The notes under the pieces: generated by a model
Seen by the model: only the letters and a program-made list of their open reading frames with translations
Told to the model about the DNA's origin: nothing
Databases searched by the model: none
Shown: in pieces, positions 1,359-1,533 of the stretch
Position numbering within the stretch: the first letter of the stretch is position 1
How the letters are laid out: the number at the start of each line of letters is the position of its first letter
Assembly (NCBI GenBank): GCA_019721075.1
Contig: JAHEAD010000011.1
Span: forward strand, 62,001 to 91,986
Direction of reading: 5' to 3'
Origin: Candidatus Sysuiplasma jiujiangense
Lineage (GTDB): Archaea > Thermoplasmatota > Thermoplasmata > Sysuiplasmatales > Sysuiplasmataceae
DNA: 29,986 nt
Made by a program: the position numbers and the translations under genes

Positions 1359-1533
1359 GGGGGTTTGGGGTAGTCCGGTATCCTTGCGGGCTCCAGTGAA
1401 GTCAAACACCTGATACCTCCTGGCAGCGGATGAATTGTTCCTTTAACTGACGGAAGGATGATGAAATACTGGAGCGATGAGCTGCCTGAAGTGGAGGTAC
1501 CCGCTGATGTGGGTTCAAATCCCACAACCCCCA
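1359..1533 (+). tRNA. trnW: tRNA-Trp(CCA) with a 102-nt intron at 37/38 (intron 1397-1498)
   Basis: Acceptor stem GGGGGTT/AACCCCC, anticodon stem GCGGG(1386-90)/CCCGC(1500-04), anticodon CCA 1393-95, T arm GTGGG-TTCAAAT-CCCAC. Splice helix CTCC(1391-94)/GGAG(1493-96) with a GTA bulge. Confidence 0.96.
1422..1486 (+). ncRNA. Intron-encoded box C/D methylation guide sRNA
   Basis: Terminal stem GGCAGC/GCTGCC, box C-like GGATGA 1428-33, D' CTGA 1447-50, C' ATGATGA 1458-64, D-like ATGA 1477-80. The D guide ACTGGAGC (1468-75) pairs with GCTCCAGT (1390-97), placing the +5 position on C34. Confidence 0.88.

Follow-up and report, generated by a model that had tools for sequence, protein, structure and literature searches.

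The intron of euryarchaeal pre-tRNA-Trp carries a box C/D RNA, and in the cases described for Haloferax volcanii and Pyrococcus (sR50) its canonical targets are positions 34 and 39 of the host tRNA (PMC7994747, PMC4090602, PMC2584109), an arrangement reported for at least 29 archaea (PMC2584109). Because the H. volcanii intron is described as dispensable (PMC4090602), selection on the guides of tRNA-Trp introns may be weak. In Pyrobaculum, sRNAs that target tRNAs are reported to carry a second guide that has no target (Lui et al. 2018, summarised in section 6 of PMC7994747). As for rRNA, 43 of 195 predicted 16S positions are given as common to two or more of seven species (PMC4644070), and helix 27 is named as a hotspot (PMC7994747). 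A literature search, outside whose scope lay subscription papers, bioRxiv supplements and the 29-intron alignment of PMC2584109, returned no tRNA-Trp intron that lacks the position 39 guide or is aimed at rRNA, and no work on the RNAs of the lineage studied here was found.

A tRNA-Trp gene with a 102-nt intron

The window analysed here is a stretch of 29,986 nucleotides from the genome (G000; 2.29 Mb, 97% complete) of an acid-mine archaeon, which has a single 16S and a single 23S rRNA gene. Its plus strand holds a tRNA-Trp(CCA) gene at 1359-1533. The 5′ exon (1359-1396) carries the anticodon CCA at 1393-1395, with C34 at 1393, and the 3′ exon (1499-1533), with C39 at 1500, has no encoded CCA end; the exons are nearly identical in relatives of the family, and the 3′ exon is invariant in all eight family-type sequences. 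Between them, after position 37, lies a 102-nt intron (1397-1498). At its 3′ end (1493-1498), bases 1493-1496 pair with tRNA positions 32-35 as the central helix of a bulge-helix-bulge splice motif, with four of four pairs in the four genomes of the genus and three of four in the other four family-type sequences. The gene thus has the 37/38 intron of tRNA-Trp(CCA) with a bulge-helix-bulge type motif, as in the sR50 type. Within the intron, 1414-1420 competes with tRNA 32-35 for the strand 1493-1499, and the protein-free fold favours the intron-internal pairing.

The locus was missed in the window by ARAGORN and by Rfam at the gathering score, and ARAGORN with the intron option gave the right span under a wrong name (tRNA-Leu). 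The genome encodes the splicing endonuclease as well as fibrillarin, Nop5 and L7Ae-family proteins, the core proteins that a box C/D RNA requires. On one side the tRNA gene is flanked by a family 2 glycosyltransferase gene (253-1113). On the other side, at 1607-2173 of the plus strand, three short overlapping open reading frames resemble a frameshifted gene for what is presumably a SAM-dependent methyltransferase, with a DIGAG-like motif followed by a stop. Two pieces of this region were tested and gave no Pfam match; the gene is probably a broken methyltransferase gene.

The intron was found in seven of the ten genomes of the family, which are also the ten of the order: four belong to the genus of the source organism and three to a sister genus. 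A record of Candidatus Sysuiplasma superficiale has an intron of the genus type. It was not found in G004, G007 and G009, which are 80, 99 and 69% complete. A metagenome scan gave five stretches, namely two family-type stretches with the same intron, one other tRNA-Trp-like locus and two chance matches. That other locus (L046) carries a guide of the C34 type and a long insertion in the region of the 3′ exon, but lacks a clear D′ box. Viral contigs gave no match to the intron, and four DNA read runs yielded no new allele and only one contig, of the G001 type. In G005 the tRNA-Trp locus is present as overlapping copies on two contig ends (L009 and L029), which is probably an assembly break and not a duplication.

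Anatomy of the intron box C/D RNA

All elements of the RNA lie on the plus strand. A 6-bp terminal stem in the fold, whose 5′ strand (1422-1427) pairs with 1481-1486 and whose sequence differs between genera, supports box C (ATGAATT, 1430-1436), the D′ guide or spacer GTTCCTTTAA (1437-1446), box D′ (CTGA, 1447-1450), a linker (1451-1457), box C′ (ATGATGA, 1458-1464), the D guide for C34 of the pre-tRNA (1465-1476) and box D (ATGA, 1477-1480). The archaeal box C/D sRNA layout is therefore present, with C, D′, C′ and D in order, the G-A pairs of the k-turn, and spacers of 10-12 nt. The linker consists of a C-G pair closing a GNRA tetraloop of which N is the sole variable base, and this cap and boxes C′ and D′ are conserved in all eight family-type sequences, as is the TGAA of box C; within the D′ spacer, 1442-1444 vary between lineages. 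The conservation of C′, D′ and the cap may in any case reflect the needs of RNP assembly. The intron of G001 (L006) has ATAA as box D, a box C that is shorter by one base and a weaker form of the internal stem described below, with C′, D′ and the D′ guide unchanged.

We place box C at 1430-1436 because this register gives the k-turn pairing with the ATGA of box D, and because box C of the class relatives ends in U opposite the same ATGA. It follows that the D′ guide is the 10 nt of 1437-1446; the 13-nt guide (1434-1446) put forward in the earlier note has to be shortened, its first three bases belonging to box C. Rfam gave only sub-threshold C/D matches to the intron RNA (snoPyro_CD, 15 bits against a threshold of 45). 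Judged by its sequence, the intron is a standard intron-encoded box C/D RNA of the euryarchaeal tRNA-Trp type. It shares with those of Haloferax and Pyrococcus, as far as these are described, the tRNA-Trp(CCA) host, the 37/38 intron of about 100 nt and the C-D′-C′-D boxes. The module lies inside a mid-intron stem, unlike that of most class relatives, where it stands at the intron start.

The C34 guide is kept and the C39 guide is lost

The D guide pairs with pre-tRNA 1390-1398 through eight Watson-Crick pairs and one G-U pair (-15.9 kcal/mol), and its +5 nucleotide, G1472, falls on C34. As described for sR50, this guide also pairs with the first bases of the intron, which it tracks in the relatives. 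The D′ guide has no counterpart of this kind, and the longest run that the source intron offers around position 39 is 2 bp. Both results agree with the earlier note, which had claimed 8 bp between the D guide and the pre-tRNA's own anticodon loop and no complement of the D′ guide near position 39. Since the +5 nucleotide of the D′ guide is not on position 39, the RNA is a homologous variant of the sR50 type and not a canonical member. It differs from sR50 further in having a D′ spacer of 10 nt that is complementary to the D guide, and a candidate rRNA target. Methylation of C34 by the intron RNA would be expected from homology.

Sixty-three loci were examined and gave 39 distinct complete introns, the remainder being duplicates, truncated or not tRNA. 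A C39 guide with a run of 5-10 bp was present in all 31 introns outside the family, which are Thermoplasmata introns from a limited set of families and so not independent, and in none of the eight family-type introns, where no run exceeded 3 bp. Loss of the C39 guide is thus, on this comparison, a family-wide trait, and it is the firmest result of the analysis. Comparison of the introns shows that in the family ancestor the D′ guide lost its match to position 39; what remained is a spacer of 10 nt, with its 5′ half paired to the D guide and with C′ and D′ intact. A group of tRNA-Trp-like introns (G153, G223, G289 and G329; family f10) starts with a GC-rich hairpin and has unusual boxes, and the GGGT core for position 39 is seemingly kept in them.

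Predicted pairing between the two guides

The earlier note had overlooked a pairing within the RNA, in which the half of the D′ guide that the family conserves pairs with the D guide of the same molecule. It joins 1434-1441 to 1471-1478 and carries the C/D motif on into the D guide, with probabilities of 0.93-0.99 in protein-free folds and an energy of -8.0 kcal/mol. Across the eight sequences the pairing is kept in 78 of 79 cells, with a C-to-U change in one place that still allows a G-U pair, and the stem register covers the spacer positions conserved in the family (-10 to -6 and -2), including the G at -10. Two-sided compensatory changes were not found in any pair across the eight sequences, and covariation is not expected here, since the tRNA leaves the D guide no room to vary. 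The stem is plausible and not proven, its structure having been derived from the same eight sequences that were used to assess it.

One explanation, to which we give considerable though minority weight, is that the intron would be a single-guide RNA making only Cm34; the D′ spacer would then be an orphan structural element, and the match of the genus to 16S rRNA described below a coincidence of three free bases. In this case the pairing between spacer and D guide may prevent the D guide, ahead of splicing, from binding the anticodon arm in cis. The near-complete retention of the internal pairing, with every family-conserved spacer position in register, speaks for it. So does a shuffling experiment in the four sequences of the genus, where the predicted cis pairing on C34 rose from 0.01-0.20 to means of 0.40-0.62 when the spacer was shuffled. 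However, shuffling had little or no effect in the remaining four family-type sequences (means 0.00-0.23), and the absence of two-sided compensatory changes also counts against it. There is a precedent in that second guides without a target are described as the rule for the tRNA-targeting sRNAs of Pyrobaculum (PMC7994747), which likewise have one guide on the tRNA wobble base and a second without a tRNA target. Those sRNAs differ in that their second guide is reported as targetless and no intron location is described for them, whereas the present RNA has a full-length 16S match in one genus.

Match of the D′ spacer to 16S rRNA

In the source genome all 10 nt of the spacer pair with 16S rRNA 850-859, through nine Watson-Crick pairs and one G-U pair, and the +5 nucleotide T1442 falls on A854, which we take to be A915 in E. 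coli numbering. By contiguous run this is the top match among 16S, 23S and 5S rRNA, RNase P RNA, SRP RNA and the tRNAs (about 9-10 kb of stable RNA), and an 11-13 nt complement of the 13-mer 1434-1446 occurs nowhere in the genome except at the locus itself. The earlier note had proposed a 10-nt pairing with one G-U and an A under the +5 nucleotide, with A915 as the target, and had made this depend on the 16S motif being present and on no other RNA offering a longer complement; the pairing is as it described, A915 is the best candidate target, the 16S motif is there, and the stable RNAs of this genome contain no longer complement, with contiguous pairing as the measure. If the +5 rule is set aside and duplex energy is the sole measure, several sites in 23S rRNA, tRNAs and 16S rRNA do better than 16S 850-859 for the 13-mer.

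The match on its own is not beyond chance: 75 of 500 shuffled 13-mers and 18 of 300 shuffled 10-mers matched equally well. With the structural bases held fixed, a complete match over 10 nt somewhere in the stable RNAs of the genome results from 2 of the 64 triplets possible at -5 to -3, and 12 of the 64 match something when the usually unpaired -1 base is ignored. The G at -10 of the spacer forms a wobble with 16S rRNA and a Watson-Crick pair in the internal stem, a stem that competes with the 16S duplex. As to quality, the duplex has nine consecutive Watson-Crick pairs spanning the +5 position, the minimum used for rRNA targets by Dennis et al. 2015 (PMC4644070), and guide duplexes of 8-10 bp are reported to work well (PMC7089733). 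Its energy of -9.1 kcal/mol falls among the values for the 31 C39 guides, which run from -7.9 to -12.3 with a median of -10.3.

Within the duplex lie 16S bases 855-857, which are able to pair with bases close to the 5′ end of the 16S rRNA of the source genome and which we take to be the 3′ strand of the central pseudoknot. The spacer might accordingly pair with pre-16S rRNA without efficient methylation and hold that strand until the 5′ strand is ready, and chaperone roles have been proposed for archaeal sRNAs. We consider such a role improbable here, as the Watson-Crick pair at +5 and the intact C′/D′ boxes would lead one to expect methylation wherever the pairing occurs, and a weak duplex limited to one genus is unlikely to be essential.

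Guides predicted for the same site in other archaea

Guides for this position have been predicted elsewhere. The D′ guide of M. kandleri sR70 and the D guide of I. hospitalis sR9 are predicted to act on 16S A897, as numbered by Dennis et al. 2015 (PMC4644070). Aligned by eye, this is the same A as A854, and the core TTCCTTTA of sR70 and sR9, as given there, stands in the same +5 register. The adjacent A896 is predicted for S. acidocaldarius sR105, P. calidifontis sR57 and I. hospitalis sR409 (PMC4644070), and the 'A915' given there for N. equitans sR17 follows that paper's own numbering and is a different site. In the hyperthermophiles, sR70 and sR9 are double rRNA guides with a second 16S target nearby, and their sites are predictions; in the present RNA, by contrast, the other guide is for a tRNA, and the molecule is an intron rather than free-standing. 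No experimental map of the 16S position was found, including by a term search of two supplements of PMC11551388.

No convincing free-standing guide for the 16S site was found in the 251 genomes of the class and 201 of the phylum that were searched. In the class, five genomes matched the pattern; four matches were the same intron, and that of G049 had no C/D layout. In the phylum, 17 genomes fitted a less strict pattern; among the 27 matches listed, 20 loci were inspected, and 19 of these lay in stop-free frames of at least 162 aa. Within the source genome, none of 12 canonical C/D layouts, found with a strict pattern that misses divergent ones, had another match of nine Watson-Crick pairs or a double match of eight, and a half-module scan for other sRNAs showed no enrichment (127 of 4392, against 41 of 1526 in a reversed control). 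One short element outside the window (G000:C12:2902-2923, plus strand) has a box C′-like heptamer, an 11-nt spacer and CTGA and ends one base before a tRNA-Asp gene. Its spacer has a match of nine Watson-Crick pairs to the D-arm region of a tRNA at C1:33749, apparently tRNA-Cys; it is possibly a tRNA-linked C/D sRNA, matches of nine Watson-Crick pairs arising in about 3% of cases by chance.

Conservation of the spacer among relatives

The 3′ end of the spacer is TTTAA in the four genomes of the genus, CAAAA in the three of the sister genus and TGAAA in the metagenomic sequences L045 and L048. Against the 16S site, the spacer of the three sister-genus introns forms 7 of 10 pairs with mismatches from -3 to -5, the +5 nucleotide included, and the metagenomic spacers have mismatches at -3 and -4 (L048 forms 8 of 10 pairs). 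The site itself is identical in G000, G006, G009 and G004, so that no change in the target compensates for the broken guides; in this comparison the 16S fragments of G001 and G002 start past the site, and G003 is without a 16S sequence. Because the sister genus and L048 mismatch at an unchanged site, the 16S target is not family-wide. The earlier note had named conservation of the guide in relatives as a check on its proposal, and the outcome is mixed: the guide is kept in all four genomes of the genus and is broken in all three sister-genus introns and in the metagenomic relative.

Within the genus, the introns are identical at 82-100 of 102 positions, and in the flanking protein G000 shares about 70% identity with the other three genomes. 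Across these four genomes, which represent about three independent lineages, the triplet 1442-1444 is unchanged, in G001 too, although its boxes C and D have changed and so has its internal stem. Ten of 28 presumed free intron positions are invariant in the genus, which gives the invariance of the triplet a probability of about 0.05, or 0.125 without the 5′ extension. The sister-genus triplet is likewise invariant, but 21 of the 28 free positions are invariant there, and this invariance says little. The sister-genus spacer matches tRNA-Pro(UGG) over 9 bp, its +5 nucleotide facing the middle base of the anticodon (the tRNA set of G000 serving as proxy), which looks like chance; its triplet being one of the 12 matching triplets among the 64, it gives a useful picture of the chance level.

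These results bear on the view of the spacer as an orphan in both directions. The 16S match is absent outside the genus, and chance gives a match in 2-12 of 64 cases per lineage, with three lineages sampled; yet this view leaves to luck both the invariance of 1442-1444 (0.05-0.125) and a match on the very site that is predicted in other archaea. Another account of the conserved bases is that they aim at a different RNA, such as 23S rRNA near 1058, which pairs with -6 to -12 in every lineage, or at lineage-specific targets, such as tRNA-Pro in the sister genus. The 23S site at 1056-1058 gives 7-8 Watson-Crick pairs with the conserved half in G000, G005 and G006, and true C39 guides span only 5-10 bp. 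But two of the pairs use bases of box C, and the +5 position forms a wobble pair in the genus; in the sister genus it falls at the end of the duplex. A joint scan of the aligned rRNAs of G000 and G006 gave no shared 16S target and only one poor 23S site (273) with a Watson-Crick pair at +5 and a run of at least 5 in both, so that no position in it was convincing as a family-wide rRNA target with covariation. We regard this account as very unlikely indeed.

A possible genus-limited 16S guide and its implications

The explanation that we prefer is a 16S guide limited to the genus. From established biology, the splicing endonuclease would excise the intron, the RNA would bind L7Ae, Nop5 and fibrillarin, and C34 of pre-tRNA-Trp would be methylated in trans through the D guide. 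In the genus, the three free bases would have become UUU, completing the 10-nt complement to 16S 850-859, and the intact C′/D′ half would direct 2′-O-methylation of A854 on pre-16S rRNA, which would be kept by selection. The internal stem would have to open for either target to bind, and the rRNA role would be recent.

By our own estimate, which is not a computed value, the chance that the RNA acts on A854 in this way is about even, because the prior for a new rRNA guide in such an organism is low and is set against three supports, each of them modest: the invariance of the triplet within the genus, the recurrence of the site in the predictions for other archaea, and the conservation of C′, D′ and the cap. 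Weighing against such a guide are the mismatches in the sister genus and the metagenomic relatives, the competing internal stem, the chance rate, the targetless second guides of Pyrobaculum, the lack of any other well-matched sRNA among the 12 layouts of the genome, and that of a convincing free-standing guide for the site in the class and phylum genomes searched. A fuller version, which we would put a little short of an even chance, is that a freed second guide, held by the first, gained methylation of 16S A915 beside the central pseudoknot in one genus, converging on a site predicted for separate sRNAs of hyperthermophiles. Since each guide pairs with the other, the rRNA guide could be unmasked when pre-tRNA-Trp binds. 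The coupling of tRNA splicing to rRNA maturation that the earlier note suggested would have a candidate mechanism in this mutual pairing.

The loss of the position 39 guide in a whole family is a small, solid addition to the textbook picture of the archaeal intron-encoded guide. If the 16S target is not real, the case shows how frequently guide matches of 9-10 nt arise by chance. If it is real, a single intron RNA would work for a tRNA as well as for the ribosome, and comparing the genus with its sister genus would test directly whether new methylation guides originate from orphan spacers, the sister genus being a natural control without the guide and the guide itself being caught as it is born. 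Should the unmasking also be true, tRNA supply would be linked to the maturation of the small subunit.
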